44,960 nt of DNA. Origin: Nitrospirota bacterium (GTDB lineage: Bacteria; Nitrospirota; JACRHJ01). Below the pieces are notes generated by a model. It was not told the origin of the DNA. It did no database searches and saw only the letters and a list, made by a program, of their open reading frames with translations. The position numbers and the translations under genes are program-made. The stretch covers positions 1 to 44,960 of the forward strand of contig DAHWTK010000002.1 of assembly GCA_027328825.1 (NCBI GenBank), given 5' to 3'. This document shows, piece after piece, positions 1-44,957 of the stretch (position 1 is its first letter; each line of letters opens with the position of its first letter).

Positions 1-1152
1 TGCCATAACCATGCCGGAAACATAGTTATTCGTCGTGGACATGTTCCCGAATGTCGCTTGAACACCCCCTTTAACCGGACCCGTAAGCGTGCCGCCGCTA
101 CGAGGCAATGCACCAGCCGCCATACTCCCGATGTTGCCGTAATAATTGTCGATGAAACCGTTTGAGCCGTTATTCGCCACAAACATTATTCCGCTTACGT
201 TTCCTAACGTCGCCTGGACGCCGCCTTTAACCGCTCCCGTCAGTGTTCCGCCTGTTACGGGAAACGCGCCAATAAACGCCGGCGTGTAATCGGACGCCTG
301 GGGTGCCACAGCCCCTGTGCGTCCGTTGAATGACGCAACTCCGGAAACGGACGCGGTTATCTCCTTCCGAAGACTCGACGTGGCGTTCTCGAAAATCACC
401 GCGTTAACAGGAACGTAACCGTTCCAGCTCATTGCCGTTATATTACCAAATGTTCCTTGGACACCGCCTTTTATCGCCCCCAACATCGTGCCGCCAGCGC
501 GAAGGAGCGCACCGTTATGCAGGCTCGACGTGGCGTTCTCGAATATCGTGGAGCTTATGGGCATATAACCATTCCATGCCAGTGCCGTTACATTACCGAA
601 CTTGCAATCACCGTTCACTTCCAGTTTGTGAGTCGGACTCACGCCAATGCCGACATTGCCGTCCGTAGGCGCGAGAATAATGCTGTCGTGATCTGTCTGA
701 TTGCCCTGAATATTCAAAAATCCGTTGACAACATCGCGCCAGAATGTAAATAGATAACCGGCAGTGGAACCGATAAGCAGGTTGTTCGCATTGTCGCTGA
801 TTAAATTAAGCGTGGTCGCCGTCATATTTCCGAACGTCGTACTAACGCCGCCTTTTATCGGGCCAAGCATTGTACCGCCTGCTACAGGGAGCGCCCCAAG
901 CTGGGCGGCCGTGTAGTCGTTCGCCATCGGAACCACCGCCCCTGTGCGTCCGTTGAATGACGCAACGCCGGAAACCGCCCCTACTATCTCGTGATGCAGG
1001 CTCGACGTGGAATTATTAAAAACATTATGATGCACATAGATGACGTTGGCTTCCTCTGGCGTAAGGCCGATCTCGCCCGCAGGGCATGGACGCGGCAATG
1101 TCGCCGCCGCTATCCCCGCAATTAGAACGATTACCGCAAAAAGTTTTTTCAT
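1..1152 (-). CDS. Exported tail-fibre-like repeat protein (first 384 aa; ORF runs off the left edge)
   Basis: ATG at 1152 preceded by GGAGG (5-nt spacer). Frame stays open to nt 1, so it is absent from the ORF track (no stop in window). N-terminus MKKLFAVIVLIAGIAAATL looks like a signal peptide. Two copies of SFNGRTGAV..DYT and four of GGT(M/L)xGxxKGG, motifs typical of phage tail fibres. Confidence 0.6.
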   Translation of the reverse strand, partial: MKKLFAVIVLIAGIAAATLPRPCPAGEIGLTPEEANVIYVHHNVFNNSTSSLHHEIVGAVSGVASFNGRTGAVVPMANDYTAAQLGALPVAGGTMLGPIKGGVSTTFGNMTATTLNLISDNANNLLIGSTAGYLFTFWRDVVNGFLNIQGNQTDHDSIILAPTDGNVGIGVSPTHKLEVNGDCKFGNVTALAWNGYMPISSTIFENATSSLHNGALLRAGGTMLGAIKGGVQGTFGNITAMSWNGYVPVNAVIFENATSSLRKEITASVSGVASFNGRTGAVAPQASDYTPAFIGAFPVTGGTLTGAVKGGVQATLGNVSGIMFVANNGSNGFIDNYYGNIGSMAAGALPRSGGTLTGPVKGGVQATFGNMSTTNNYVSGMVMA

Positions 1153-3693: not shown

Positions 3694-3736
3694 AAACCTC
3701 TAAAGTCGCTGGGTTCCCGCTTTCGCGGGAATGACG
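3694..3736. repeat. Family-A palindromic repeat, intergenic (gpT stop / TMP start)
   Basis: aaacctctaaagtcgctgggTTCCCGCtttcGCGGGAAtgacg. Near-identical copies at 4476, 14026, 16885 and 17056. Confidence 0.9.
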
Positions 3737-4475: not shown

Positions 4476-4521
4476 AAAAACCCCCTAAAGTCGCTGGATT
4501 CCCGCCTTCGCGGGAATGACG
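4476..4521. repeat. Family-A palindromic repeat, intergenic (major tail stop / gpG start)
   Basis: aaaaaccccctaaagtcgctggaTTCCCGCcttcGCGGGAAtgacg. Confidence 0.9.
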
Positions 4522-4522
4522 T

Positions 4523-5959
4523 TTACAAAAACCAGATTGCCAGGTCGTCGTTACCGGCGTTGTAATACGGGTCCGCGTCGATTGTCAGGACGCGCTCGCC
4601 GGATTTGTCCGTTATCTTCGGGATCTTGAACGTCGTCTGCGGAAGGACCAGAGCGCAGACGTAGCCCGCCTTCGGGTTGCCGTTCGCGTCCATGGCGTAG
4701 CTCGGGAGCATCACCGCTTCCGACGTTATCGTCAGAGCGTCCCCGAAGAGGAACAGATCGCTCTGCCGGAAAAAGACTTCAAGCTTCGGCTTCAGGTCCC
4801 TTTCGCCGGGCGTGGCGTAGGACAGGACGTAGTCCTGCGCTATTGCCTCGTCCTCGTGGAACACGACCTTATTGTCCATGTCCACCTGGCCGGAAAGGAC
4901 GTTCATGGCCGCCCCGTTCAGGACCATCGTCCCGCGATGGCCCATGACTACCGTCCCGGACTCTACGCCCGCCGGTATCCAGGGATATACGTCTATTCCG
5001 TTCGCCGCCGTCCAGGCCTGCGCGCCCGTGCCCCTCGTCACCGTAAGGTCCGTCAGGTACGGGTTCGTGGGGCCGGCCCCGGCGTTCAGGGCCTTCCCGG
5101 TGACGATAAGCTTCGTCTCCGTGCTCGTCCCGTCGGAGAGGTTGAAACGCGCGCCGACGTCGAATTTCCGGCCGTCCTGCACCGTTACGACCGTCGCCGC
5201 GCCTGACGCGACGTCCGCATAAAGCGTGTCCGTGCCGCACCTGATGACGCGCTGGAAACCGGAACCCATGGTGAGCTCTACGTCCTCTCCGGGCTTTTTT
5301 ACGACCGAGATTTTGTCCCACACCGTGCCGAGATAAACGAAGACCTCGTCGTAAAAATCCTGCCAGACCGAGTAAGACGGAAGCTCGTCGGCGAGTGTAT
5401 AACCCACGGCGGCGTAAATGTTCGCCGTGGCGACGGGCGCGGCGGAAAATGCGGGGGCGACCGTGACGACGTTCGTTACCGCGTCTATCGCCGTTATGAG
5501 AGCAAGCTCCTGGTGCGCCGGGTTTCCGATATCCACGAGCACCGGTTGCCCGACAGAGAAGTTCGCGGGAGTACCGGGAAGGAAAGTCGTCGTCGTCGGG
5601 GCGGGAGCGGCCTGGACGGTATCCGCGGCGCGCGCGATCTTGTTCCCCATGCCGCCGTTCAGAAGCCTATCCTGAGGCGGAGCAGTCCCGGCGGTCCCGG
5701 AGACATACATGTGCGTCTTGAGGCTCCCGGTGCCGTGCTTGAGCATCCCAAGGAGCATCTTGCGTTTGCTCCGGGTCGCATGCGCGGCCTTGTCCTTCTT
5801 CAGGTCCGGCTCCTGGTCCCAGTTAGACGGGTCTATCGGGATAACGAGGTCTGTATTCGCCGGCTCGGCAATAGCGCCGTAACTCGTCTCCGGCACGACA
5901 AAGAAACGCTCCTTTCTGGACAGAGCGATATTGCTTGCGTTATATCTTTTCAGCGTCAT
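4523..5959 (-). CDS. Major tail (tube) protein with extra central domain
   Basis: 478 aa, ATG with GAGGAG RBS, immediately upstream of the G/GT chaperones. N-terminus ..FFVVPETSYGAIAEP.. resembles tail-tube N-termini. Called mainly from synteny. Confidence 0.5.
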   Translation of the reverse strand: MTLKRYNASNIALSRKERFFVVPETSYGAIAEPANTDLVIPIDPSNWDQEPDLKKDKAAHATRSKRKMLLGMLKHGTGSLKTHMYVSGTAGTAPPQDRLLNGGMGNKIARAADTVQAAPAPTTTTFLPGTPANFSVGQPVLVDIGNPAHQELALITAIDAVTNVVTVAPAFSAAPVATANIYAAVGYTLADELPSYSVWQDFYDEVFVYLGTVWDKISVVKKPGEDVELTMGSGFQRVIRCGTDTLYADVASGAATVVTVQDGRKFDVGARFNLSDGTSTETKLIVTGKALNAGAGPTNPYLTDLTVTRGTGAQAWTAANGIDVYPWIPAGVESGTVVMGHRGTMVLNGAAMNVLSGQVDMDNKVVFHEDEAIAQDYVLSYATPGERDLKPKLEVFFRQSDLFLFGDALTITSEAVMLPSYAMDANGNPKAGYVCALVLPQTTFKIPKITDKSGERVLTIDADPYYNAGNDDLAIWFL

Positions 5960-6192: not shown

Positions 6193-6681
6193 TCACCTCG
6201 AAAGAAGGTTTGTTTCCCAAAGTATCTCGATGCCCTTTACAACCGCGAACCTCGGATAATTGCTGCCCTCGTCGTACCCGGAGCCGAGCGGCTTTATCTG
6301 CTTGACGAGGCCGCCAAGGTTATCCGCCCGCTGGACGGCCTGGTCCACCAGCTCCTCAAGCGTCGTGACGTCGATAAAGCCGGGCTGGATATTCGGGAGT
6401 TCGCCTGAGTTCTCGCCATTGTTGAAAATCAGGATGTAGAGCAGGACCTTGTCGCTCATCTCGCCCATCATGCCGCCGATGAGCTTCGGCTCCTGCTCGA
6501 CACGGGTCATGAGGACCATCGGGCACATCTCCGCAGGTATCTCCTTCACTTCCCGGACGCCGTAGCGTATCGTGAGCGCTTTTCCGTACTGAGCCTGGCA
6601 GAATGCGGAGACGTCGGCGTCGGCGGTTATCGCGGCGGAAAGCGCGTCGAGGATGGATATGAAGGACTTATTCAAGGCCAT
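6193..6681 (-). CDS. Putative neck / tail-terminator protein
   Basis: 162 aa between the gp10-like gene and the major tail gene. Called from position only. Confidence 0.3.
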   Translation of the reverse strand: MALNKSFISILDALSAAITADADVSAFCQAQYGKALTIRYGVREVKEIPAEMCPMVLMTRVEQEPKLIGGMMGEMSDKVLLYILIFNNGENSGELPNIQPGFIDVTTLEELVDQAVQRADNLGGLVKQIKPLGSGYDEGSNYPRFAVVKGIEILWETNLLSR

Positions 6682-7120
6682 ATTTGTCCACCGTCTTTTT
6701 CAGTTCCTCGTCCGCGAAGCGAGGAGCGAGGCCGAGAAATTCCTTTGCGGGCGCCGACAGAAACGGGCGCCGCATCCCGATGACGCCGCCCAGTGCGCCG
6801 CGATGGACCCGGCCTTTCTCAATTGCGCCCGCGTATGCCGCCGAGTTCCCGACGTAAGCGACGCCCGGCTCAATGCGGAGTTTCATAAAAAGAGACCGCC
6901 GCAGGTGACCGGTTCGCACCGGGACGGGCCAGCCGCCGATTCCGGGATTGCGCCGATCCTTCGGCGCGATCCGCGGCCCCGACAGGTTGTCGAACGCCTT
7001 TTTGAAGACGTTCGTCGCGATCCTGCCGGCGATGTTGCTCGCCGTCTCGTCGGCGAGCGCCCTCTTCACTCCGGTGAGGGCGTTTAGCGCTTCCTGCGCA
7101 TGGAATTCGAAGCCGCTCAT
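6668..7120 (-). CDS. HK97 gp10-like head-tail joining protein
   Basis: 150 aa containing ..VRTGHLRRSL..VAYVGNSAAYAGAIEKG.., similar to the DTGxLRxS...YAxxVExG signature of the HK97 gp10 family. TAATG overlap with the upstream gene. Confidence 0.6.
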   Translation of the reverse strand: MSGFEFHAQEALNALTGVKRALADETASNIAGRIATNVFKKAFDNLSGPRIAPKDRRNPGIGGWPVPVRTGHLRRSLFMKLRIEPGVAYVGNSAAYAGAIEKGRVHRGALGGVIGMRRPFLSAPAKEFLGLAPRFADEELKKTVDKYGLE

Positions 7121-7896
7121 TACATATCCCCCGGGTCTGGCCCCGGAAGTGGAGGAGCTCCCGGGCCATAAGGCAAATCCTCAGGTAGAAACGACTGGCG
7201 CGGGAAATGACTCGACCGTGCTGTGATAGACGCAAAGGTCGATGGTCTCCCTGCGATACCCTCTATCCATTCGCAGGCCTTGTCGTACTCCGCGAGCGCG
7301 TCCTTTGCCGCCTGCTCCTCGGATAGTCCCACGCGGACATGCGCCTCCGCCGTCCCCTGGAACTCGCGGAGGAGCCTGGCCTTCCGCATCTGCCAGAGCT
7401 GAGCAACGGAAAGCTCGACAATGGCCTTGTTCGCCGCCGCGATCTGAAGCTCGTCGGTCGCGTTGATGATGATGTCATCGCCGTAACGCGCCCGGAGCTC
7501 GAGCAATTTATTGGCGACGATATTCGCGACCTTCGTCTGGAATCCGGCATTATCAGCCGGAGACAGCCCAAACATCGCGGGCGAGAAACCTCGGTCGATG
7601 ACATCCTGGATAAGGTCGGACTGCCCGACGGGCGCGGCTACGGTGGCGGCGTTCACACCGTAAACGAAGTTCCACTGCTGTTGCCCGACGGTAATCAGCA
7701 GAGAATATGCCCCACCCGTAGAAGGCGTGAAGCTCAGGGAATAAACACCCGGTTGACCGGCGACCGGCGTAACCGTCACGACGATAGCGGAGGCGTCGCC
7801 GTCGACGAGGACAAGATTTTTCGTAAAATCCACATCCGTAAGCCCGTCGGGCGCGCCGTAGAAAATGTCGGTTATCGTTTGTCCGGCAATATTCAT
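7120..7896 (-). CDS. Virion protein: beta-rich (Ig-like) N-domain plus helical C-half, possible head-tail adaptor
   Basis: 258 aa, ATG with GAGGA RBS. N-terminal ..VTVTPVAGQPGVYSLSFTPSTGGAYSLLITV.. looks Ig-like. Role inferred from position. Confidence 0.35.
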   Translation of the reverse strand: MNIAGQTITDIFYGAPDGLTDVDFTKNLVLVDGDASAIVVTVTPVAGQPGVYSLSFTPSTGGAYSLLITVGQQQWNFVYGVNAATVAAPVGQSDLIQDVIDRGFSPAMFGLSPADNAGFQTKVANIVANKLLELRARYGDDIIINATDELQIAAANKAIVELSVAQLWQMRKARLLREFQGTAEAHVRVGLSEEQAAKDALAEYDKACEWIEGIAGRPSTFASITARSSHFPRQSFLPEDLPYGPGAPPLPGPDPGDM

Positions 7897-7903
7897 GGGT
7901 TCC

Positions 7904-8704
7904 TCAATTCAAGACGCTCGCGTCTATCCACAGATTAAACCTGAGCACGGTGTTTATCATGGTGCCGTTTCTGATTTCGACCTCTGCCAGATATTTGCCA
8001 ACACGCAAAGAGGTATCGCTCGTCGATAAATTAATCAGGCCGGCACCCGTAGAGGCGTCGGTAACCTGCGCGGTAATGTCGCGGGCAGGGATTGCATACT
8101 GTGAGCTGATATAATTGGATTTCGCCCCGAACCAGACGGTATAACCCGTGATGTCCTTATTTACCGAATACGGTATCGATGCAGAGTCCCCATACGTCAC
8201 GTGGACGTCGTTGCCCTGGGCGACCGTCTCATAGGAAGCCGCGCCCTGGAACGGCAGGATCGTAATCGCTCCTGCGCCCCACTGGCCCGCGCCGTGGACG
8301 CTCGAAAGGTAGCTATTTATCGAGGTGGAGTTGACGTAGACCTGCGGTTCGGCTTCCACGTCTATCGATTCCGTCTCGCTGTCCGCATACATCCCCGTCG
8401 TGTTCTCGTAGGCGGTATAATGCGCGGAACCCGCCGGGCACGTGAACGACCCGCCGTAGACGCCCGACTGGCCGTCCGCCGGGACCATCGTAGTCGCCGA
8501 GCGGAAGACGGTGCCGTCCTGCCGGATAATCGTGAGCTTCGGCTTTAGGCCAGTAACACCCGCGCCCGCCGATGTAATCTGCAACCGGAGCGGTACTACG
8601 TCCCCCGGCGCGGCGACAATCGCCCAGGCTGTCCCGGCTATCAGCAGAGCGAGCGCGGCAAAAACGCCTGTCATTCTGAGCGTAGTGAAAAATCCGCTTT
8701 TCAT
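7904..8704 (-). CDS. Exported beta-rich protein
   Basis: ATG at 8704 preferred over the track's TTG at 8719 (GGAGG 6 nt upstream). N-terminus MKSGFFTTLRMTGVFAALALLIAGTAWA, whose first 12 codons are encoded by a family-C repeat. Confidence 0.6.
   Translation of the reverse strand: MKSGFFTTLRMTGVFAALALLIAGTAWAIVAAPGDVVPLRLQITSAGAGVTGLKPKLTIIRQDGTVFRSATTMVPADGQSGVYGGSFTCPAGSAHYTAYENTTGMYADSETESIDVEAEPQVYVNSTSINSYLSSVHGAGQWGAGAITILPFQGAASYETVAQGNDVHVTYGDSASIPYSVNKDITGYTVWFGAKSNYISSQYAIPARDITAQVTDASTGAGLINLSTSDTSLRVGKYLAEVEIRNGTMINTVLRFNLWIDASVLN
8670..8704. repeat. Family-C repeat, supplies the start codon and N-terminus of CDS 7904..8704
   Basis: gtcattctgagcgtagtgaaaaatccgcttttcat. Compare 9570-9604 and 35808-35839. 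Confidence 0.9.
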
Positions 8705-8731
8705 TTCATGCCTCCGCAAGGCCCGCAGTGT

Positions 8732-8747
8732 TCCCGAAATTTCGGGA
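8732..8747. repeat. Perfect 16-bp palindrome TCCCGAAATTTCGGGA (function unknown)
   Basis: Read directly. Lies about 30 nt upstream of the 8704 start, in the cytochrome / exported-protein intergenic gap. Confidence 0.5.
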
Positions 8748-8861
8748 CGCTCCGGAGCACCTCACAGCACCCCTTGTTAATCGGTTGGCCGTTGAACTGC
8801 CATACCGGGCAGGCGCTCACGAGGATTGCAGTTATCGTTTTCCAGGGCCGTCCGCGTTTTT

Positions 8862-9422
8862 TCATTTGTAAATACCCGTCGTGTTTAAATAGTTGAGGCC
8901 CGTATTATTTTCATAATGCGGGTTATGGCAATGCGGGCACTCGTATGCCTGCGACACCACCGGCGTCCCCCCCGACACCGCCGCGCCGGATTTAAACACG
9001 CTTATGGCCCCGGTCGTGAGGCTGTGCGAGGCAAGCGGTGCCGGGCCGTTGTAGACGCTCAATAATTTTGTCGATGTCAGCGTCATTTTCGGCGTCCCGA
9101 CGCCCGCGCTGTTGTGGCAGGACAGGCACGCGGAATCCATGTAGCGGACGTTCCCCAATATCCCCAAAACCCACCCGCGAGAGCTCCGATTGACGAACCG
9201 CGTCCTGTTGACGGTCGTATAATTCCGTATCAGCCCCCATACGCTTCCGCGCGCCGCATGGCACGCGCCGCAGTTGTTAGCGCCATACATGCTGGTATAG
9301 TTAGCGTGCGGCCCGGACACGGTTACGCCGTCCAGACGGTAGCTCGGCATGGCGGACGCGGCAACCACGGCCAGAAACAGCGTAACCGCCGCGAACGCGG
9401 ATATGGATACCGTGCGCCTCAA
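8862..9422 (-). CDS. Exported tri-haem c-type cytochrome
   Basis: Three CXXCH motifs (CGACH, CLSCH, CPHCH followed by NPH). Signal-like N-terminus MRRTVSISAFAAVTLFLAVVAASA. TTG start overlapping the upstream stop (TTGA), GGAGGG 8 nt upstream. Confidence 0.7.
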   Translation of the reverse strand: MRRTVSISAFAAVTLFLAVVAASAMPSYRLDGVTVSGPHANYTSMYGANNCGACHAARGSVWGLIRNYTTVNRTRFVNRSSRGWVLGILGNVRYMDSACLSCHNSAGVGTPKMTLTSTKLLSVYNGPAPLASHSLTTGAISVFKSGAAVSGGTPVVSQAYECPHCHNPHYENNTGLNYLNTTGIYK

Positions 9423-9604
9423 AGACTATGCCCTCCAAGCGGAGCAACGCTATAATCCCGGAGCGGGGCGGCAACCGCCGCCGACGCCCCGGAAACCGGC
9501 GCGGGAGACCCGTTCATATCGCCCATCCAGGCATACGCGCACCCGCCGAATACGGCGAGGAGCAGGAGTGTCATTCTGAGCGTAGCGAAGAATCTGCTTT
9601 GCAT
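9419..9604 (-). CDS. Small exported / lipoprotein-like protein
   Basis: MQSRFFATLRMTLLLLAVFGGCAYA.. The N-terminus is encoded by a family-C repeat. Start is ATG 9604 or TTG 9610. Confidence 0.4.
   Translation of the reverse strand: MQSRFFATLRMTLLLLAVFGGCAYAWMGDMNGSPAPVSGASAAVAAPLRDYSVAPLGGHSL
9570..9604. repeat. Family-C repeat, supplies the start codon and N-terminus of CDS 9419..9604
   Basis: gtcattctgagcgtagcgaagaatctgctttgcat. Confidence 0.9.
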
Positions 9605-9606
9605 CG

Positions 9607-10155
9607 TCAATACCTGTATAAAATCGTAAAATAATACGACGCCGGGCTTGCCCCGGTATTTGTAACGGTCGCCTCAATCTGGCTGTTGCCGTCCTCATTT
9701 ACGTATGGGATTATCCCCTGGCTGTCCTCGCTCCACATGGAGCCGTCGGCCACCAGACTGTTGAAGTTCGCCGAGCCGCAATACGTGTCCGAGTTATATG
9801 CGCCGCCGCGCCGGGCCGCGCGGGAGTAAAATTTCACCTTGCACGCAGAGTTAGCTGTCGCCACGGTTGACACCGATACAATCTCGACCTGATCCGGGTC
9901 GGTTATCGCCGCACCCGCGGTGAGCACCGGCACGGTCACATCCACGGACGCCCCCGCAGCGAGGCTCCCGGCGTCGATGTGCGCAATGCCGTATTGATAT
10001 TTTACGAATATCGGCGTCGACGCCTCGGTGCGGATGCCGAGCGTTTTTGTCGAGGCATCGTATGTGAGGTTCCCCAGGTTCACCTCGCCGGCGTAGGCAT
10101 AAATCGACCATATTGCTGACGCCAGCAATATGGTTATCGCAAATAATTTTTTCAT
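9607..10155 (-). CDS. Exported protein of unknown function
   Basis: Trimmed to ATG 10155 (AGGAG RBS). MKKLFAITILLASAIWSIYAYA signal peptide, beta-rich mature part. Confidence 0.6.
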   Translation of the reverse strand: MKKLFAITILLASAIWSIYAYAGEVNLGNLTYDASTKTLGIRTEASTPIFVKYQYGIAHIDAGSLAAGASVDVTVPVLTAGAAITDPDQVEIVSVSTVATANSACKVKFYSRAARRGGAYNSDTYCGSANFNSLVADGSMWSEDSQGIIPYVNEDGNSQIEATVTNTGASPASYYFTILYRY

Positions 10156-10252
10156 ATCGCTCCTTTCGATTCTCCGTTTATGCCGCCCCCTGAATCCCCG
10201 GCTCATTTACCGGATATTGCGTCAAGGCTCCGGGAGCGGCGAAAAGGGAGAG

Positions 10253-10654
10253 CTACTGAATTATCCCCTTCGTCCGGAGCGCGCCGACGGTGGACGTGAT
10301 GAAATTGTCCAGCGTGTTCGCGTCGATTCCGGTGGCTGTGGCTACGGCGCCGAGATTGTCCGTTACCGCGCTTTCGGCGGACTGGATGCCGGTCTTTTCC
10401 AGGCCGGAAAGGATCGTCTTGGCCGCGATGTCCTTTTTGTTGGCGCCCGCGGGCGCGGATGCCGCCGCCACGACGCCCTGGATAACGAGGTTCGGAAGCT
10501 GAGGCGCTTCTTTCTCGATTGCCGCTTTCAGGACGTGCCAGGTCCAGAGGCCGACTTCCTCCAGCGCCGTCAATGTCTTTTTGCCTGCGCTCTCGACGAA
10601 AGCCGAGACCTCTCCGATAAGCTGCTGCCCGGGGCTTTTCTGTTCCTCTGACAT
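10253..10654 (-). CDS. Hypothetical protein
   Basis: Trimmed to ATG 10654 (GGAGGG RBS), abutting the stop of 10656..10871. Confidence 0.5.
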   Translation of the reverse strand: MSEEQKSPGQQLIGEVSAFVESAGKKTLTALEEVGLWTWHVLKAAIEKEAPQLPNLVIQGVVAAASAPAGANKKDIAAKTILSGLEKTGIQSAESAVTDNLGAVATATGIDANTLDNFITSTVGALRTKGIIQ

Positions 10655-10655
10655 A

Positions 10656-10871
10656 TTACCCTCCTGTGAAAAATCTTCTGACTGCTCTCCCGACCTTCCG
10701 CCAGTAGGAAGGCTCGTCCCAGTCGCCTTTTCCTGAAACCTCAAAAAAAACGCCTTGACCGCCTGTGGTGTCCTGTCCATCTTTCGGTTTCCCCTTCACA
10801 TCTACCGAGATGCCGATGTCCTCGCCCTCGATGCCGTCGCTGTCGTCCAGTTTCAGGTCTAACCGGGCCAT
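10656..10871 (-). CDS. Hypothetical acidic protein
   Basis: 71-aa ORF with ATG 10871, directly after the holin-like gene. Confidence 0.4.
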   Translation of the reverse strand: MARLDLKLDDSDGIEGEDIGISVDVKGKPKDGQDTTGGQGVFFEVSGKGDWDEPSYWRKVGRAVRRFFTGG

Positions 10872-10875
10872 TTAT

Positions 10876-11334
10876 TTATATTCCAGGAAATTCAAATAAG
10901 TGAAAACAGCCTGACAGCATAAGCGCAACCAGAACAAAACCGGTCAAGAATAACACTTTAAGACGCGCAAAACCCTTGTCGTTAAACGCCGTCATCTTGT
11001 CATCGGAAAGTTCCGAATGCTTTGCTGTGATAGTGGTTGCGGCGGCGTCATAACTCGGCGGATCCAGACCCGCGTCCGTCATCATCTTTGTGTAGAGCTC
11101 CACGGCCTGGTCGAGCTTCTGTTTGCCGCTCCAGCCGTTCAATTTTCCGGACGCCTCGGCAGCGCGGACCGCCTTCTCCGCGAAAAGGCCGCCAGCGACG
11201 GCCACGTCCTGGATATACTTCGGCTGTTTTTTCAGCCAGCCGACGTACCACTTCATGCCGAACTTCATGGCCAGTCCGATAATCGCCGACGCGCCTATCA
11301 ACCCGATCGCCGCGTGGATTAAGTAGTTCTGCAA
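10876..11334 (-). CDS. Holin-like membrane protein (LL-H-like layout)
   Basis: TTG start with GGAGGTG RBS. N-terminal TM (AAIGLIGASAIIGLA), ..AEKAVRAAEASG.. helix, C-terminal hydrophobic segment. Lies next to the endolysin. Confidence 0.45.
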   Translation of the reverse strand: MQNYLIHAAIGLIGASAIIGLAMKFGMKWYVGWLKKQPKYIQDVAVAGGLFAEKAVRAAEASGKLNGWSGKQKLDQAVELYTKMMTDAGLDPPSYDAAATTITAKHSELSDDKMTAFNDKGFARLKVLFLTGFVLVALMLSGCFHLFEFPGI

Positions 11335-11346
11335 AACGCACCTCCT

Positions 11347-11799
11347 TTATGCAAGCGGCTCGCGCGCAACCTTTTCGAGATTCGCGAGCCTGTTCAACCA
11401 ACCCGACAAGAACCGGGCTTCTTTAGGTTTGTTCTTCGCTATCGTCTCATAACGAAGCTTTCTGATACCGATGAAGGCGTTCCAGTCGTCGCCCGCAGCC
11501 GCGAGCATATTCCGCGCGGTTCCCTCGCCCATGTTCACTGCGGTATCGAATACCAGCAGACACAAAGGCCAGGAAAGCTTGTCGCAACCCGCGAGTTTCC
11601 AGTAATTATTGAAATACAGGTCTTTCGCGGCGGCGAGAGCATCACCTCTCGACATGGTCATCATGCGCTTCACAAGGTAGGGGTAATACCTGCCTGAGAC
11701 ACCGAAGATAGTCAGACCGCCGGGGTCGCCCTGGAGGTTCGATTCGTAACCCTCCTCGCCGACGACCACGGAAAAAGATTTCTCAAATTCAGCGCTCAT
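11347..11799 (-). CDS. Endolysin, GH108-type muramidase with peptidoglycan-binding C-half
   Basis: ..VVGEEGYESNLQGDPGGLTIFGVS.. matches the EGGY..D.GG.T..GI motif. ..FDTAVNMGEGTA.. and ..GWLNRL.. match the associated PG-binding region. Confidence 0.8.
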   Translation of the reverse strand: MSAEFEKSFSVVVGEEGYESNLQGDPGGLTIFGVSGRYYPYLVKRMMTMSRGDALAAAKDLYFNNYWKLAGCDKLSWPLCLLVFDTAVNMGEGTARNMLAAAGDDWNAFIGIRKLRYETIAKNKPKEARFLSGWLNRLANLEKVAREPLA

Positions 11800-11996
11800 A
11801 ATGTCCTCTCGTCTTCTTCCGGAGCCAGGAGCGCGTCCAGGTCAGTGAATGCCTGGCGCGCGCGGGCCTCAAAATTAATGCACGCCTGGGTTGGGCCGCC
11901 TTCGCGGTCGCAGCGCATCGCCGGGTCCATACAGGCATAGGCGTTCCCGAAAATGTGTTTTACCTCGGCGATCTGCTCACGGGTGAAGGTAACCAT
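11796..11996 (-). CDS. Hypothetical protein in lysis cassette
   Basis: 66 aa, with ATGA/TAATG coupling to both neighbours. Confidence 0.45.
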   Translation of the reverse strand: MVTFTREQIAEVKHIFGNAYACMDPAMRCDREGGPTQACINFEARARQAFTDLDALLAPEEDERTL

Positions 11997-12262
11997 TATG
12001 TTTTCTTAAGCTCCGAAAGCCAGGAACGGAAATCATCTTTTACTTCCTGAAGCGCATCGTGGAAGTCTTTTTTTACATCCTTAATAAAACTCTCAAGGTT
12101 GGCCTTCTCCGCCGCCTGGGCGCGCTTGCATTCCGCGCATTTCTCGGTCAGATCGCGTTTTGTGACGAACTTATTCATCGTCATGTAGAAACCGGCGATG
12201 ATGCCGAGAAGCGAACCGATGACGGTACACGATGGAATCACTATGGCGGCCCAGGTCGGCAT
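11996..12262 (-). CDS. Single-pass membrane protein with coiled coil (holin/antiholin or spanin-like)
   Basis: N-terminal TM AAIVIPSCTVIGSLLGIIAGFYM followed by a charged helix. GGAGGG RBS. Confidence 0.45.
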   Translation of the reverse strand: MPTWAAIVIPSCTVIGSLLGIIAGFYMTMNKFVTKRDLTEKCAECKRAQAAEKANLESFIKDVKKDFHDALQEVKDDFRSWLSELKKT

Positions 12263-12277
12263 CCGTTCGCCCTCCTC

Positions 12278-12832
12278 TTACCACTGATTGTCGCGGCCTT
12301 CCGTCACGTAAAAATCGACTGCGCGGTTGCCGGATCTCGTAAATGAAACAGCCAGTTTATTGGCGCAGACAGGGATTGTAATCGCGCCGTCGTGAGTGAA
12401 ATCCATACCCGTCGCACCGACGTAATAAAGAGACCATGGGCCGCTGTCGGTCGGCGCGGTATAGATTTTAAAATGACTAGGCGAGATGTCCGAATAGCCG
12501 CCGAAACGATATGCGTGGCCGGCCGTCTTCCCGGATGCCGTGGAATAGTTGTACCAGCCGCCGTAAACGCCTTTCCACTGGATGGTGGCGTAACGCCAGC
12601 CCGCGATGTCCCATATTTCGCCGTTGCCGGTAGACTGGACGTTGTAGTTCGTGTCCAGGATATTCATCGTCCCGCTGAAGTCGAACTGCTCGACGCCAGA
12701 GACGCCGGTCCAGTTCGTATATCCGGCGGTGGTGGTCTGCGACGCCGTGCCGCCGGTAAACCTGTCCGCAAAAGCGGAGACGGCCATGATGCTTATGAGC
12801 ATCGCCGCCATGAAAAACAAGAATTTTTTCAT
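12278..12832 (-). CDS. Exported beta-rich protein
   Basis: Trimmed to ATG 12832 (GGAGG, 5-nt spacer), because the track's longer ORF overlaps the capsid gene. MKKFLFFMAAMLISIMAVSAFA signal peptide. Confidence 0.6.
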   Translation of the reverse strand: MKKFLFFMAAMLISIMAVSAFADRFTGGTASQTTTAGYTNWTGVSGVEQFDFSGTMNILDTNYNVQSTGNGEIWDIAGWRYATIQWKGVYGGWYNYSTASGKTAGHAYRFGGYSDISPSHFKIYTAPTDSGPWSLYYVGATGMDFTHDGAITIPVCANKLAVSFTRSGNRAVDFYVTEGRDNQW

Positions 12833-12890: not shown

Positions 12891-14006
12891 TTACGCGGCC
12901 ATCGGCAAGCGCTTGAACTGTTTCGGGTTGCCAATGCCGAAATTGTATTGTTCCTTGCCGACCATCTCCTCGGACTTCTTGAAGATGTCGCGCTGCCCCT
13001 CCATCTGAAGGTCCATCCACGTGCCCATCTTCGTCTGGTAAAAAGGAAGCACCACGTAGAAGCGCGTCTTGTCCTTGAGCCTCCTGGTCGTGATGATGTT
13101 GTCGATGGTGTAGTTTATCCGGGAGACCTTCTGCTCTGCCTGGGCGAAGGGGTTCAGGAGCGAGTCCAGGGCGAACGCGATCGCCTTGAATGCCTCCGGC
13201 GGGCAGAGGATGTTGAAGCTCGGGTTATCCGGCAACCCGTAGCCCATGTACTCGATGTCATAGACCATCTGGATACAGGCGTTGTCGATGGTCGTGATGA
13301 GGTTCGTGTCGTAGGCAAAGTCCACGCCGTTATTCGGCAGGATGTTGCCGTTCGCGTCCTTACCGAGCGCCTCGATGAGGCCGTAGGCCAGGGAAGTTTT
13401 GAGCATCTGCCTCTTCAGGCGGAACTGCTCCAAAACGTCGTCCATCTTCCAGAACCACTCGAACTCCCACCAGTCGTCCAGGAAACCGATGGCGGCCATG
13501 AAGTTCAGGTAGTAGACCGCGAGTATCTGCGACTTGTCTCCGACACCGCCGACCGTTACCTTCTCGCCCTCGCCGACCTGCTGCCAGACGATGGAGTCCG
13601 TGGCGGAGTCTATCGTAAAGTGGTCTTTGCGCGTTCCCCTCATGTCCACCGGTTTGTATATCTTCTCGTACCCCAGATCGGGCGCAAGCGCGCCGGTGAT
13701 GTACCGCTCAATCATGAACGGGTCCGGGGCCTGCGTCAGAGGCGTCCCGCCTCCGGTGCCAGGCGCGGCGAAGGGATAACCCGACGGGGCGGGGATGTTA
13801 TCCTTCATGCCGCCCGCCATCCACGCCTTGAGCATCATGGCCGACATAACCCTTCCGGAGTCTGCACCCAGCCGCGGGTCGGGCGTTTTCAGGTAGGCGT
13901 TTATCGCGCCCACGAACTTCTTTGTCTCTTCGGGCGTCCAATCCCTGGGCGTCCTTCCGCCCATGGACTGCATCATTTTCGCCCACTTTATCTTCGGTGC
14001 GAACAT
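12891..14006 (-). CDS. Major capsid protein
   Basis: 371 aa, strong GGAGGG RBS. Position after portal, protease/scaffold and the DUF2190-like gene. Confidence 0.7.
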   Translation of the reverse strand: MFAPKIKWAKMMQSMGGRTPRDWTPEETKKFVGAINAYLKTPDPRLGADSGRVMSAMMLKAWMAGGMKDNIPAPSGYPFAAPGTGGGTPLTQAPDPFMIERYITGALAPDLGYEKIYKPVDMRGTRKDHFTIDSATDSIVWQQVGEGEKVTVGGVGDKSQILAVYYLNFMAAIGFLDDWWEFEWFWKMDDVLEQFRLKRQMLKTSLAYGLIEALGKDANGNILPNNGVDFAYDTNLITTIDNACIQMVYDIEYMGYGLPDNPSFNILCPPEAFKAIAFALDSLLNPFAQAEQKVSRINYTIDNIITTRRLKDKTRFYVVLPFYQTKMGTWMDLQMEGQRDIFKKSEEMVGKEQYNFGIGNPKQFKRLPMAA

Positions 14007-14067: not shown

Positions 14068-14445
14068 TTAAAGAAGCGCGTGCTCCATCATCAGCTCGCA
14101 GTCTACCGTCGCATTGCCCTGCGCCGAGTCCGCATGCGCGACACCGAAGAGCTTCAGACCCGCCGCATCGACGTTCGTAGCCCAGTTGTTCACCGGGTCC
14201 CAGTAGAGCTTGTCGCCGCCCTTTATCGCGACGGCCGCCTGCGGAAACGCGATTATCTCCGCATCCACGATAAACATGCCGCTTACGCCGGCGGCTATCG
14301 CGGCGAACGCCACGGCAACCAGCGTGTTGCCCGCGGTGCCGGTCAAAACAACGATGTCCATCGGGCCGCACGCGGCGGCGGGAGTCATACGGCGCGTTCT
14401 GTAGCCGCCGCTCGAAGATTTATTTATTGCCTGCACGTTTGCCAT
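14068..14445 (-). CDS. DUF2190-like head protein (decoration/cement type)
   Basis: 125 aa with ..GMFIVDAEIIAFPQAAVAIKGGDKLYWD.. pattern. Placed between the protease and capsid genes, as is typical for this family. Confidence 0.55.
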   Translation of the reverse strand: MANVQAINKSSSGGYRTRRMTPAAACGPMDIVVLTGTAGNTLVAVAFAAIAAGVSGMFIVDAEIIAFPQAAVAIKGGDKLYWDPVNNWATNVDAAGLKLFGVAHADSAQGNATVDCELMMEHALL

Positions 14446-14525: not shown

Positions 14526-16019
14526 TTACTCCAGCCAGTCGTTTCCGGCGGCGGTTTCGAGCGATTTCGTGCCTTCGCCGGGACCCCCGGTGGTGCGCTT
14601 TTTGTCCTTCATCTCCTCGCCGGGGAGTTCGGCCTGGTCGGGGAACCTCTTCATGGCTTCCTCGGCCTGCACTTTTCCTTCCCTTCTGAGGTCGGCTATC
14701 GACCAGCCGCCGATGAAGGACTTGTAATTCTCAATGTCCTCCGGTCTGTCGCCGCATTTTCCCAGGAGCCGGGCGTTCTTGATGTAGTTGTCTATCAAGC
14801 CGTCCCGGTATGCCTTCCCGGCGGCGGCAAGGACCTTGATGTCCGCGACGGTCACGCCGTCCTTTATACCCAGGACTGCCTTCATGTCCTTCAGCTTCGT
14901 CTCGGTGGCCTCGTTAAGCACCACGAGGTCTTTATGCTTCGTCTCGGTCTCCTCGCGGCGCGCCTTCTCCGCCTCATAAAGTTCCTTGTATTCCATGTTT
15001 TCTCCTTCATCTTCAGGGTTGATGTGATTATGTGAACAACCGGCGCAGGCGGCCTTATCGACCGTAACCGCGCCAGGCTGGGCGCCAAGCCAGACAGACG
15101 AGGTCTCGTATGCCTCGCCGGGAGACTGCCACTCGTCATAAAGGGTATTCGACGGGTTCGACGGGTCTTTTACGGTCACCGGTCCCGAACCGCTAAACGA
15201 GAGCGATACGAAACGGTGGATGCCGCCGTCGATGTTCTTGCGCATGTCCTCGTTGGACGGCATTTTTATCGCGTACATATGCCCCTTCAGGACGGTCATC
15301 ATGCCCATACCCGGAGGGAGCTGAGGCCTTTCGCCTGTCATGGCCTCAAACTCATCCGGCGACATCATGGCCGTCTCTGCGTGGAACCAGGTCCCTTGCG
15401 CAGGCCCTTTCTGGCCGCCGTAACTCCCCGGATGGCCGCCGGAATTGTTAAAATAGCCCTTGCCGGGAAGCGTCCGGGCGAAATCCGAAAGAACGGACTC
15501 GTGAAACCGCTCGCCGTCCCGATCCACCGCGTTATGCGCCACCATAAAAGGAGCAACATAAACATCGTCAGGCGTGAGAGCGGCATGTGAAAAACGGTTT
15601 ATCTTCGACATCATCTCTGGTGTGGCCTCTACGCCCTCACCGAGTTTACGCGGGACGCCCTCGGCGTCCTTCCACTTATAAAGCGTGAGACCTTTAGTAT
15701 GCATTCCGGAAACCGACTTGCCGTCTATCAGATTCAGGAGCGTAGCTGCTGCGGACTCGATGACCGTCGCGCCTTCGGCTCCGGCGCGTTGCTTCGCGGC
15801 GATAACGCCAGAGCGGTAGACCCTCCCGCCTTTAACGATGGGATATTTCCACTCCTGCTCCGTTCCCTTCTTGGCCGGATCGTGGCCAAGAAAACAGTTT
15901 GGAGCGAGCTTTTTGCGCTCGTCGTTTGAGAGACTCCAGCCGGAATTCCTGTCCACTGAGCCACCAGCGATAAGCGTCCGGGCATGAGAGACGCCGGCGC
16001 TATTCAATTCAACCCCCAC
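14526..16019 (-). CDS. Prohead protease (HK97/S78-like) fused to a coiled-coil scaffold-like C-terminus
   Basis: ..AHNAVDRDGERF.., ..IDGGIHRFVSLSF.. and ..YETSSVWLGAQPGA.. resemble S78 protease blocks. C-terminal EYKELYEAEKARREETETKHKDL.. is coiled coil. GTG start with GGAG RBS. Confidence 0.6.
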   Translation of the reverse strand: MGVELNSAGVSHARTLIAGGSVDRNSGWSLSNDERKKLAPNCFLGHDPAKKGTEQEWKYPIVKGGRVYRSGVIAAKQRAGAEGATVIESAAATLLNLIDGKSVSGMHTKGLTLYKWKDAEGVPRKLGEGVEATPEMMSKINRFSHAALTPDDVYVAPFMVAHNAVDRDGERFHESVLSDFARTLPGKGYFNNSGGHPGSYGGQKGPAQGTWFHAETAMMSPDEFEAMTGERPQLPPGMGMMTVLKGHMYAIKMPSNEDMRKNIDGGIHRFVSLSFSGSGPVTVKDPSNPSNTLYDEWQSPGEAYETSSVWLGAQPGAVTVDKAACAGCSHNHINPEDEGENMEYKELYEAEKARREETETKHKDLVVLNEATETKLKDMKAVLGIKDGVTVADIKVLAAAGKAYRDGLIDNYIKNARLLGKCGDRPEDIENYKSFIGGWSIADLRREGKVQAEEAMKRFPDQAELPGEEMKDKKRTTGGPGEGTKSLETAAGNDWLE

Positions 16020-21458: not shown

Positions 21459-21531
21459 TGGAGCGGGCGGAAGGAGTTGCACCTTCGCCTCCGGCCTGGT
21501 GGGACGGCGCTATACACTTAGCTACGCCCGC
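21459..21531 (-). ncRNA. tRNA-like element / degenerate tRNA ending in CCA
   Basis: The minus strand GCGGGCGTAGCTAAGTGTATAGCGCCGTCCCACCAGGCCGGAGGCGAAGGTGCAACTCCTTCCGCCCGCTCCA folds as follows:
- perfect 7-bp acceptor stem and U8
- 4-bp D stem
- 5-bp T stem with 7-nt loop
- 17-nt anticodon arm with one T:C mismatch
Atypical points: C33, no GG in the D loop, G55. Confidence 0.4.
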
Positions 21532-35807: not shown

Positions 35808-35839
35808 AAAAGCAGATTCTTCGCTTCGCTCAGAATGAC
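35808..35839. repeat. Family-C repeat, intergenic (opposite orientation to the other two)
   Basis: aaagcagattcttcgcttcgctcagaatgac. Confidence 0.85.
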
Positions 35840-35907
35840 GGTTGTTGCGGCCCGGAGGTGCGGCCCTCCGGGACTGTTATCCCGTCCGAAGGGGGTGAAC
35901 GGGAAAC

Positions 35908-43918: not shown

Positions 43919-44367
43919 TACTGATAGTTCTCCTCAATAAGCTCGAAGGAGATGTTGACGTAAAGATAATCCGGGTCGGCAGGTTTCAGGTCGCCGCTGT
44001 GGAACCTGACGTTATGCGCCGCCCCGGTCTCGTCCGTGAAGGAAAACTGGTTTAACTGCCTGCCGACACCAAGGTAAAAAGTAAAAAGCGTGTTATAATC
44101 GGCAACCGGCAAGTTCTCGAAAACCATCGGGTGAATAAGGGCAAGCGAGTAATTCGCCACCTGGTAGGTACCCGCCTCGGTAAGAGCGGCGACCGAATTG
44201 TCCAGCGTCTTCGGCGTAATCGGACGGCTCCTGCCGCGCGTGGGAACCCATGACGTGAGGCCCGCAAAGGCAAAGGTTATTCCGGACGGCTGGAAAAACG
44301 ACTGAGTCGACGCGCCGACATCACCCTGGATGCCAAAATTGCTTTGCTCGCTATCGAGTGGCGGCAT
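43918..44367 (-). CDS. Minor tail protein (distal-tail-like by position)
   Basis: 149 aa, TAATG-coupled on both sides, directly upstream of the tail-tip gene. Confidence 0.4.
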   Translation of the reverse strand: MPPLDSEQSNFGIQGDVGASTQSFFQPSGITFAFAGLTSWVPTRGRSRPITPKTLDNSVAALTEAGTYQVANYSLALIHPMVFENLPVADYNTLFTFYLGVGRQLNQFSFTDETGAAHNVRFHSGDLKPADPDYLYVNISFELIEENYQ

Positions 44368-44957
44368 TATTTTACTTCCCAGATTCGCTGATTAGAGAGC
44401 TTCCCATTCGCAAAAGTTGCAGAAGTCGAATAGACGGCAAGGACATTGTTGCCGCTATTCGCCCGTGCGTCAGCCGCATTTGTATACAACCTCATCCGCA
44501 TCGATAACAATTGATTCTGAGAATTATATGATGAGGAATCGAATGCAATGTTTTGCCTGCACAGCCCAAGGAGCCGGAGGGCCGTCGGGTTGCTCCAGGT
44601 GGTATCCACATCCCAGAGGCGCACGTTATCCGTGAACGTCCCGACAGCCGTGTTATTGTAAAACACGATGAGCTTGTATTCTCCGGCGGATGCAGGGGTC
44701 GTCGTGGCGTCGTAACCGGCAGAACTCTGGTTTGTAAATGTCCACACGACAGGCGTGGGGACATCGTTTATCCAGGTCTTGGTGCTGAATTTCGTCAGGT
44801 CGCAATTGGTGCGCGAGGAGGCGTCGGAATTTAACACATAGAAAGCCTCGTACATCGGCTTGTTTACAGTGTAGTCTGCCAGAGCGCAGACCGAAAGAGC
44901 GACGGCAATCATTATGGCAGCCATTCCTACGAGTAATCCACTTCTACGTTTTTTCAT
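44367..44957 (-). CDS. Exported beta-rich protein in the tail module
   Basis: MKKRRSGLLVGMAAIMIAVALSVCALA signal-like N-terminus. ATG at 44957. Confidence 0.55.
   Translation of the reverse strand: MKKRRSGLLVGMAAIMIAVALSVCALADYTVNKPMYEAFYVLNSDASSRTNCDLTKFSTKTWINDVPTPVVWTFTNQSSAGYDATTTPASAGEYKLIVFYNNTAVGTFTDNVRLWDVDTTWSNPTALRLLGLCRQNIAFDSSSYNSQNQLLSMRMRLYTNAADARANSGNNVLAVYSTSATFANGKLSNQRIWEVK

Follow-up and report, generated by a model that had tools for sequence, protein, structure and literature searches.

What is a c-type cytochrome doing between the head and neck genes of a tailed phage? In the 44,960-nucleotide (nt) stretch of Nitrospirota DNA analysed here (the window), 12 tightly packed minus-strand genes at 7904-12832, hereafter the island, separate the putative major capsid gene from the first neck gene, and one of them, gene D, encodes a predicted exported cytochrome (Table 1). 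A first-pass annotation had described an accessory stretch of ten or more open reading frames (ORFs) at this position and had not recognised the combination as a described phage module. The stretch is real and its genes are co-directional, numbering 12 rather than about ten; the exported N-termini, the cytochrome and the holin-endolysin pair are all present, and no phage cytochrome cassette of this kind is described in the full-text literature searched, in PHROGs, Pfam, NCBIfam or PADLOC, or among deposited phage genomes. The island is a composite of three parts with different histories, namely gene A, whose exported product is encoded behind the capsid gene in six phage lineages, a lysis block (10253-12262) consisting of a holin, a GH108 endolysin and small conserved partners, and a cassette, B-F, that contains the cytochrome and that probably acts late in infection and in the cell envelope.

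The separate history of the cassette is evident from the related phage loci that were compared with the window (L001, L002, L003, L004, L008, L009, L010, L012, L016, L137 and L138). Of the relatives found, L002 is the closest. It is a prophage-like stretch of a Nitrospirota metagenome-assembled genome (MAG), and its capsid protein is 88% identical to that of the window; L002 lacks window positions 7897-10651 (2.75 kb, comprising the 133-amino-acid (aa) protein w133 and B-F) and carries at this point one unrelated 103-aa gene, which the neck gene follows directly. L003, a P2/Mu-like myovirus, carries B-F (7904-10155 in the window) with a nucleotide identity of about 80%; its contig continues with genes for Mu Gp36, the tail terminator, sheath, tube and a P2-type baseplate, and its Gp36-type neck gene has no BLASTP match to that of the window. 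As B-F is absent from L002 and about 80% identical in the unrelated L003, we conclude that it is a mobile cassette embedded in the operon. Its boundary lies at the F stop codon in both backbones, since homology to L002 resumes at the start of the neck gene and L003 has its own neck gene following F. The first-pass annotation had viewed the island as part of the late transcript rather than an independently inserted element, and for the right-hand half the second clause fails, as 7897-10651 is replaced in L002 and B-F is mobile.

At least eight phage backbones retain all or part of the order B, C, D, (E)F. Among the carriers are a locus with a Mu-like head (L004), one with a different capsid type (L008), one with a lambda-type terminase and portal (L012), one with a siphovirus tail in which D is internally deleted (L137), and one with a capsid-protease fusion in which the cassette follows the tail-terminator gene (L138). 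In the IMG/VR locus L009 the whole island is repeated, running from the capsid gene through A, a holin-like protein, an M15 endolysin, w71, a w133-like protein, B, C, D and an E-F fusion to an SU10-type head-tail adaptor. The cassette stands directly after the lysis cassette in the window, L009, L012 and L138, as does an F-family gene in L010 and L016, and the endolysins of these six loci are of three different types. When the ratio of nonsynonymous to synonymous substitution rates (dN/dS) was calculated against L003, values of 0.13-0.29 were obtained for four cassette genes (C, 0.17; D, 0.29; E and F, 0.13 each), versus 0.08-0.11 for the capsid, neck and endolysin genes. The cassette genes are clearly under purifying selection, with ratios somewhat above those of these other genes.

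We interpret D as a Sec-exported tri-haem c-type cytochrome because of its motifs, its scores against curated models and its conserved signal. It matches Paired_CXXCH_1 (PF09699) with 36.1 bits (cut-off 20.6) and TIGR01905 with 26.6 bits (cut-off 25.2). The three CXXCH motifs and the residues H39, M45 and H169 do not vary among eight homologues, down to about 33% identity, and the motifs recur in four more distant representatives; H39, M45 and H169 are candidate axial ligands, and their number suffices for three haems. The N-terminal hydrophobic segment, with an ASA↓M site, is conserved in all homologues. Judged by its sequence, D has the features of multihaem c-type cytochromes yet fits no described subfamily, and among solved structures it has no significant relative, only marginal matches, as is also the case for A and B when compared by sequence. 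In L137 (327-551; P0054) an internal deletion joins the signal peptide of D to its last haem motif, leaving 74 aa, with E and F intact; the cassette is apparently able to decay, or to work without full D. A further observation, made on the window and on L004, L008, L009 and L012, is that C ends in the motif PLG(G)HS(L/I) (window 9419-9450), which is duplicated in some homologues and recurs in D, at residues 127-136, as APLASHSL, with P129, L130 and S134 invariant. This shared motif may serve in interaction or strand exchange.

Relatives of D are few. They form eight clusters among 5.8 billion proteins, and an exhaustive profile search of 1.84 billion representatives yielded 13 proteins at E <= 0.001, five of them at E <= 1e-10. 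One locus was found in IMG/VR, none in 185,579 representative genomes (GTDB), and none by tblastn in 50,697 deposited phages. All relatives with readable genomic context sit in phage late-gene regions. The D family is phage-restricted, and is probably neither a recently captured host gene nor part of an ordinary structural set.

The proteins encoded with D are likewise mostly exported, as judged by inspection of the sequences and a hydrophobicity scan, and none of A, B, C, E, F, w71 and w133 of the window has a match in Pfam, PHROGs or NCBIfam. B has seven close homologues, plus those in L004, L008 and L009 at 28-40% identity. Its AlphaFold2 model (mean predicted local distance difference test score (pLDDT) 63) is all-beta past the N-terminal helix, and the best Foldseek matches are to BC2L-C and PLTL, which are trimeric lectins of the tumour necrosis factor (TNF)-like type, and to jelly-roll capsid proteins (E about 2e-5, template-modelling score about 0.5). 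With modest confidence, the model suggests a jelly-roll, lectin-like fold. An outer-membrane beta-barrel of the porin or Lom-like kind was considered for B and rejected, since the model is a jelly-roll sandwich, and a paralogous relationship between A and B was rejected because profile-profile comparison aligns their signal peptides only. C had been listed as a small lipoprotein-like ORF; it is instead an exported peptide with an AYA↓W site of the signal-peptidase-I type. Neither a lipoprotein nor an o-spanin is tenable here, as the cysteine is not conserved and the homologues have signal-peptidase-I type sites. These homologues lie upstream of D, with short forms in L003 and L009 and forms of 176-188 aa with the same C-terminus in L004 and L008; the L012 contig ends within C.

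E and F are joined by gene fusion in some relatives. E, a Cys-rich gene that the first-pass list had overlooked despite its conservation in relatives, shares ATGA overlaps with both D and F; it was not called as a gene in L003, and a 45-aa homologue is present in L008. In L004 and L009 F carries at its N-terminus a fused Cys-rich segment, at the position of E, which precedes a transmembrane helix with positive flanks, and for this reason we place the E part in the cytoplasm and F across the membrane with a periplasmic body in these two loci. F itself has 36 homologues. Its C-terminal domain (residues 160-262) is modelled with pLDDT above 90, and its N-terminal immunoglobulin (Ig)-like domain only weakly. 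The best Foldseek matches of the C-terminal domain are baseplate chains of phages 80alpha and NF5, matches in BFVD include BppU-domain, minor tail, tailspike and neck-passage proteins, and the F homologue P0011 matches Pfam BppU_N at 4.8e-9. The same domain occurs at about 70% identity in Nitrospirota prophage proteins of 300-457 aa, some F homologues match phrog_1084 (to which no function is assigned), and a tblastn search of deposited phage genomes with F gave no match. All F-family proteins that were fetched have signal peptides, lipoboxes (LQGC↓GK in several) or hydrophobic N-termini. In L010 and L016 an F-family protein follows the lysis cassette at the prophage end, beside a tail-fibre-like lipoprotein, and the cytochrome is absent. 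There is a weak similarity between the Ig-like domain at the start of F and the N-terminal domain of the neck-position protein (34% over 47 residues, pairwise E = 3e-4), a hint that an exported and a virion protein may share a domain.

Table 1. Features of the window that are discussed in the text, with positions, strands and the evidence for each.
Feature	Position	Strand	Description	Evidence
Capsid gene	12891..14006	-	putative major capsid protein; upstream boundary of the island	phrog_24071 9.8e-18; 88% identical in L001 and L002
A	12278..12832	-	exported beta-rich protein, 184 aa from MKKFLFF; signal peptide ending AFA↓D	ORF, N-terminal hydrophobic segment
88-aa gene	11996..12262	-	N-terminal transmembrane helix (residues 5-25) and coiled coil	71% identical in L002
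66-aa gene	11796..11996	-	Cys-containing protein within lysis block	ORF; 1-nt and 4-nt overlaps with neighbours
Endolysin	11347..11799	-	GH108, weak PG_binding_3 match	PF05838 1.3e-15, 58.2 bits (cut-off 21.2)
Holin	10876..11334	-	Holin_LLH, 152 aa; hydrophobic segments N- and C-terminal	PF09682 26.7 bits (cut-off 24.9)
w71	10656..10871	-	acidic conserved 71-aa protein ending ...FFTGG	76% identical in L002, 54% in L009
w133	10253..10654	-	133-aa protein; first gene of the segment absent from L002	weak homology to L009 136-aa protein
B	9607..10155	-	exported, 182 aa; signal peptide ending AYA↓G; predicted jelly-roll/TNF-like lectin fold	homologues, model
C	9419..9604	-	exported peptide, about 36 aa after cleavage, ending ...APLGGHSL	homologues; stop overlaps D start (TTGA)
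D	8862..9422	-	predicted Sec-exported tri-haem c-type cytochrome, 186 aa; CGACH 51-55, CLSCH 99-103, CPHCH 162-166	motifs and Pfam
E	8701..8865	-	54-aa Cys-rich, zinc-ribbon-like protein	85% identical over aligned codons in L003
F	7904..8704	-	exported, 266 aa; signal peptide ending AWA↓I; Ig-like N-terminal domain, linker, C-terminal BppU_N-type Ig domain	model, homologues
Neck/adaptor-position gene	7120..7896	-	258 aa, Ig-like N-terminal domain; downstream boundary of the island	71% identical in L002
Neck1/tail-completion gene	6668-7120	-	next after the neck/adaptor-position gene	phrog_5
Major tail protein and 841-aa tape-measure-position protein	downstream of 6668-7120	-		late operon
Head decoration protein	14068-14445	-		phrog_122
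Protease/scaffold-like protein	14526-16019	-		late operon
Portal	16285-18609	-	fused to Mu-F-like minor head protein	late operon
Repeat copy, start of F	8669..8704	-	roughly 30 nt, gives first codons of F (MKSGFFTTLRMT)	direct repeat family D1
Repeat copy, start of C	9569..9604	-	second copy, roughly 30 nt, gives first codons of C (MQSRFFATLRMT)	direct repeat family D1
Exported 196-aa protein	44367..44957	-	F-family N-terminal domain; signal peptide ALA↓D	56% identical to N-terminal half of P0016
Exported tail-fibre-like ORF	1..1152	-	signal peptide, SFNGRTGAV repeats; runs off window start	43% identical to L010 398-aa lipoprotein

Mobile as it is, the cassette is built into the late operon. 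Most island genes have GGAG/GAGG-type ribosome-binding sites 8-14 nt before the start codon, and they are joined by overlaps of 1-4 nt or gaps of 1-15 nt, the exceptions being 58 nt between the capsid gene and A and 97 nt between w133 and B. In a scan for sigma-70-type sites, promoter-like sequences were not in excess (5 versus 3.4 in shuffled sequence), nor were terminator-like sequences (10 versus 9.3); no consensus promoter or terminator of the kind scanned for flanks B-F on the coding strand, and the 97-nt gap ahead of B holds no convincing signal of either sort. An independent transcription unit was rejected because these sites are at the shuffled level. Foreign base composition was rejected as well, since GC and GC content at third codon positions (GC3) match the surrounding structural genes: GC3 is 0.62-0.78 in the island, inside the structural-gene range of 0.60-0.85, and the cassette, with GC of 0.56-0.62 and GC3 of 0.66-0.78, also lies within the structural-gene range. 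The view of the first-pass annotation that the island genes look like members of the late operon is in agreement with all of this, namely their common strand, ribosome-binding sites and overlapping junctions, with no excess of promoters or terminators and no compositional break. What sets them apart within the structural gene block is export, as signal-type N-termini with AXA-type sites are almost confined to island genes and to two genes after the tape measure. The lone exception is a 682-aa ORF at 18582-20630 (-), upstream of the portal gene and without a Pfam match, which, when read from a GTG start, opens with a signal-peptide-like segment (VKRALILLFTAAIMSIGIVTANA); this probably reflects a mis-called start or a separate small ORF.

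The left-hand half of the island has a simpler history. L002 runs from the capsid gene through A, a transmembrane protein, a GH108 endolysin, a small membrane protein, w71 and the unrelated 103-aa gene to the neck gene, and the shared order from A to w71 indicates that this phage group inherited A and the lysis block from its ancestor. The first-pass expectation that capsid and neck genes should be adjacent thus does not hold for this group, and there is nothing anomalous about the left-hand half: L002, L009, L012 and L138 also keep their lysis genes between those for head and tail, which is the classical arrangement of P2. A has no family in Pfam, PHROGs or NCBIfam; its homologues immediately follow the capsid gene in L002 (61% identical, dN/dS 0.26), L004, L009 and L012; in L008 a few other genes come first. 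The endolysin also matches phrog_315 (endolysin, 2e-25) and is 75% identical in L002, and the holin matches phrog_2609 (holin, 3.3e-5) and has transmembrane segments at residues 5-23 and 122-147. The lysis cassette had been called complete, and its holin and endolysin do score above the cut-offs; completeness is confirmed only in part, as no spanin or other disruptor of the outer membrane was confidently identified. Pfam, PHROGs and the hydrophobicity scan revealed no convincing spanin in the window and no conserved lipoprotein partner for the 88-aa protein, which from its predicted helix and coiled coil could be holin-like or i-spanin-like; comparable transmembrane and coiled-coil proteins precede the endolysin in L009, L010 and L016. 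The 66-aa protein has no family match. Just upstream of the cassette, the lysis regions of L012 (8841-9329) and L138 (7050-7550) contain a dual-specificity-phosphatase-like gene (DSPc, 2.7e-7, below cut-off).

At the right-hand end of the lysis block, a 175-aa ORF listed at 10253-10780 is not a gene; this spurious frame masks the two genuine genes w71 and w133. w71 has a dN/dS of 0.10, and L012 has a gene of similar size whose C-terminus is, by eye, similar. w133 shows 27% identity (E = 1.8e-4) to the 136-aa protein at the same position in L009 and no similarity to the 103-aa protein of L002 or to a 133-aa protein of L012, and in PADLOC it has a match at chance level only (DruM, E = 0.005). 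As to the genes that bound the island, phrog_24071, which the capsid gene matches, is an uncharacterised PHROG, and we call the gene capsid because of its position, after the portal, protease/scaffold and head-decoration genes, and its synteny with L002. The neck/adaptor-position gene is without any family match of its own; its positional equivalent in L009 is the SU10-type head-tail adaptor.

How, then, might the cassette work? We propose that B, C, D and F are exported by Sec, that the periplasmic cytochrome-c maturation system of the host would attach three covalent haems to D, and that the proteins would assemble as a complex tethered to the membrane through F, whose anchoring would differ by phage: a cytoplasmic zinc ribbon (E) with a transmembrane helix, a signal peptide or a lipid anchor. 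The complex would be made alongside virion and lysis proteins, outside the virion assembled in the cytoplasm, and would work in the envelope at about the time of lysis. There, the fibre- and lectin-like B and F could bind a surface or periplasmic structure of the host and thereby mask it or exclude other phages, protecting the progeny at release, with the haem protein as a ligand or redox partner of the masked structure. That the cassette specifies a late, extracytoplasmic accessory complex acting in the envelope seems to us somewhat better than an even bet. The masking role is tentative, and we favour it because it fits late expression, export, the lectin and fibre folds, the accessory status of the cassette and its link to lysis genes. 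The explanation as written, a composite operon with a masking haem complex in the envelope, falls slightly short of an even chance in our estimation.

Several points weigh against this proposal. The timing of expression is read from operon structure, and as the sigma-70 scan may miss promoters of the host, probably a member of the Nitrospirota, the lysogen may also express the cassette. That the proteins form a complex we infer from their translational coupling and conserved gene order, and the fold of B comes from a model of moderate confidence built on seven sequences. In L004 and L008 the cassette is not beside lysis genes. The cassette proteins have no sequence or fold similarity to the known exclusion proteins Llp, Cor and Ltp and no PADLOC match, and searches of PADLOC, PHROGs, Pfam and NCBIfam gave no relevant match of any cassette protein to known exclusion or defence proteins. 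Masking of a receptor by itself gives no reason for a haem protein, and we know of no example of receptor masking or exclusion that involves a cytochrome. Lastly, the BppU_N domain normally anchors proteins to virions, which would also suit a role on the virion.

An unlikely alternative is that the cassette consists of respiratory or electron-transfer accessory genes, either of the auxiliary metabolic gene (AMG) type or serving lysogenic conversion. D would then join an electron-transfer chain of the host, in the periplasm or outside the cell, with B and F positioning it, and would sustain energy supply during infection or benefit the lysogen. An electron carrier is the only component with recognisable biochemistry, the phage is temperate (integrase at 39676-40761), the cassette is accessory in that one phage can have it and a close relative lack it, and relatives occur in MAGs of the Nitrospirota, a phylum rich in multihaem cytochromes. 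AMGs, however, normally have close host homologues, and cellular homologues of D outside prophages are lacking from the 185,579 representative genomes; as no cellular homologue was found, recent capture of a host respiratory gene is disfavoured. The family is also extremely small, all of its members with readable context lie in phage late regions, the partners have folds of the phage-fibre and lectin type rather than those of redox partners, and the genes are embedded in, and translationally coupled to, structural genes, with no promoter of their own in the scan.

It is less likely still that the cassette arms the virion outside the cytoplasm. c-type haem attachment is periplasmic, and on this account exported D and its partners would attach at lysis to the neck or tail of the released particles by way of the BppU_N-type domain in F, giving a haem-decorated virion for which cytochromes of the host, haem receptors or redox-active minerals could serve as sites of adsorption. 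That the cassette in most backbones is found in the head-neck portion of the operon, just ahead of the adaptor or neck gene, is in keeping with this account, as are the C-terminal domain of F, a conserved fold that anchors accessory proteins to baseplates and necks, the resemblance of the B jelly roll to receptor-binding heads, the restriction of the family to phages and the co-located lysis genes. Anchoring of F by a transmembrane helix (L004 and L009) or a lipobox (P0023 and P0024) would, however, hold it on the cell, the cassette of L138 follows the tail-terminator gene instead of lying at the head-neck junction, and the D of L137 carries its internal deletion; moreover, no tailed phage is known to gain structural parts after lysis. 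If true, it would be the first post-lysis arming of a tailed phage, and the haem-bearing virion would be a literal version of the 'Ferrojan Horse', a hypothesis as cited in PMC10980836.

We consider it comparably improbable that the complex is an accessory to lysis, helping to breach the outer layers of the envelope or setting the timing of lysis, whether as a periplasmic sensor that would signal to the holin via the cytoplasmic zinc ribbon of E or as a redox shunt that would collapse the membrane potential. The position directly downstream of lysis cassettes, in six loci with three endolysin types, speaks for such a role, the window has no convincing spanin, and the two-sided membrane topology of E-F in L004 and L009 is like that of antiholins and anti-sigma factors. 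Against it, L002 lyses without B-F using the same lysis block, the cassettes of L004 and L008 are away from any recognisable lysis gene, and no component resembles known spanins, disruptins or antiholins. The possibility raised by the first-pass annotation, that these are ordinary head-decoration or neck proteins with uncleaved hydrophobic N-termini, to which we add CXXCH motifs that bind no haem, draws on the position between capsid and neck genes, on the virion-type folds that F and B do have and on the weak resemblance of the F N-terminal domain to that of the adjacent neck protein, but it is very improbable given a translationally coupled, conserved cytochrome that scores above cut-off with its three CXXCH motifs and candidate ligands invariant to about 33% identity, the conserved canonical AXA signal peptides, the lipoboxes and membrane anchors of homologues, and the dispensability of the cassette in the close relative L002.

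Two repeat elements were also noted. A roughly 30-nt repeat (GCAGATTCTTCGCTWCGCTCAGAATGAC) is present in three copies in the window versus 0 expected; two encode the starts of F and C (M.S.FF.TLRMT), and the third, at 35811-35840 (+), lies in apparently non-coding sequence. A second hairpin repeat (CTGGGTTCCCGCTTTCGCGGGAATGAC, stem TTCCCGC/GCGGGAA) is found at window positions 3702-3736, 4487-4523 and 16888-16923, that is, at two gene junctions and inside the portal/Mu-F ORF. In L003 the hairpin repeat (151-189, 328-360 and 1049-1084) is turned round with respect to the genes, compared with the window, and supplies the residues 'WVPAFAGMT' near the start of C, D and F, and it also occurs in L012 at about 10788-10815. 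Insertion of this repeat seems to be tolerated in regions that encode signal peptides. The element is very widespread, with exact copies in more than 120 contigs from Alpha-, Beta- and Gammaproteobacteria, Dehalococcoidia and Binatia, and host prediction from it was discarded as uninformative because these copies span many phyla.

Elsewhere in the window, the tail-fibre-like ORF at its start and the 196-aa protein at its end form a second pair of exported genes, after the tape-measure-position gene, and both are absent there in L002; the 398-aa lipoprotein of L010 precedes an F-family gene. L002 is collinear across the window ends, and the frame stays open when 44960 is joined to 1, so that the window probably represents a whole genome in circularly permuted form; the fibre-like ORF would then continue straight into the next gene, and a little sequence may therefore be absent at the junction. 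Two small proteins with clear signal peptides are encoded directly upstream of the integrase, at 38699-39304 (+) and 39314-39679 (+), and a lipoprotein (…LVSCC↓GC) is encoded in the early region at 32625-33146 (-); from their sequences, these three are candidates for further envelope-acting accessory genes. A tRNA-Gly (anticodon ACC) lies at 21459-21531 (-), upstream of the ORFs that precede the portal gene.

Redox genes carried by phages are usually taken to be metabolic genes stolen from the host. D has no detectable cellular relatives, keeps the same four or five partners across at least eight backbones and is encoded amid structural and lysis genes, and these features jointly suggest that phages have a use of their own for a haem protein in the envelope, of a kind not described so far. 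Once known, its role could uncover a new stage of infection, release or exclusion among the phages of cytochrome-rich, poorly studied soil and sediment bacteria, and would also give a function to the wider exported fibre-like family in Nitrospirota prophages.

Among known systems, the proposed masking role is closest to that of exclusion and masking proteins such as T5 Llp (PMC9586334) and the prophage-encoded receptor blocking that protects progeny (bioRxiv 10.1101/2024.03.05.583538), which are phage-encoded, exported or lipid-anchored and act at the cell surface. Such proteins are often encoded beside tail or lysis genes; they differ from the cassette in sequence and fold, Llp is an early gene, and the role proposed here is an inferred one. 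With BppU_N proteins (TP901-1 BppU, the 80alpha baseplate and lactococcal neck-passage proteins) F shares the Ig-like fold of its C-terminal domain and, like the neck-passage genes, a gene position at the head-tail junction; unlike in those virion proteins, the domain of F is C-terminal rather than N-terminal, the family is exported or lipid- or membrane-anchored, and F is coupled to a cytochrome. D resembles small multihaem cytochromes (tri-haem c7/PpcA and the paired-CXXCH proteins of Geobacter and Shewanella) in its Sec signal, three CXXCH motifs, His/Met candidate ligands and Paired_CXXCH_1 match, but it has about 160 mature residues per three haems, spaces its motifs by 45-60 residues and occurs in phage late operons only; similarity to c7, the nanowire tri-haem domain and OmcS is marginal and in every case below cut-off. 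Porin-cytochrome conduits (MtrCAB, Pcc) likewise pair an exported cytochrome with beta-rich exported partners, whereas here there is no porin-sized barrel, B being a predicted jelly roll of roughly 160 residues and A having only about 160 mature residues, and D has three haems versus 8-12, with an MtrC/MtrF domain match below cut-off.

In its mobility the cassette is comparable to the lambdoid morons lom and bor, which are envelope accessory genes located between structural genes, present or absent in close relatives and swapped between unrelated backbones. It differs in showing neither a promoter and terminator of its own in the sigma-70-type scan nor a deviating composition, and in being a six-gene translationally coupled unit, kept as such across very divergent phages, rather than a single gene; the cassette is moron-like in presence/absence and mobility and departs from morons in its regulatory signals and composition. 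The island as a whole recalls the P2 late operon (Y, K and lysA/B/C), where a holin and an endolysin also lie inside the structural operon, from capsid to neck and tail completion, a placement kept in relatives; the lysis proteins themselves are unrelated in sequence to those of P2, no spanin pair is recognised, and extra exported genes (A and B-F) flank the lysis cassette of the window. The left half of the island is a known arrangement, which extends P2-style placement of lysis genes to this phage group, and in the right half an exported cytochrome forms the core of a cassette that is rare, mobile and confined to phages.

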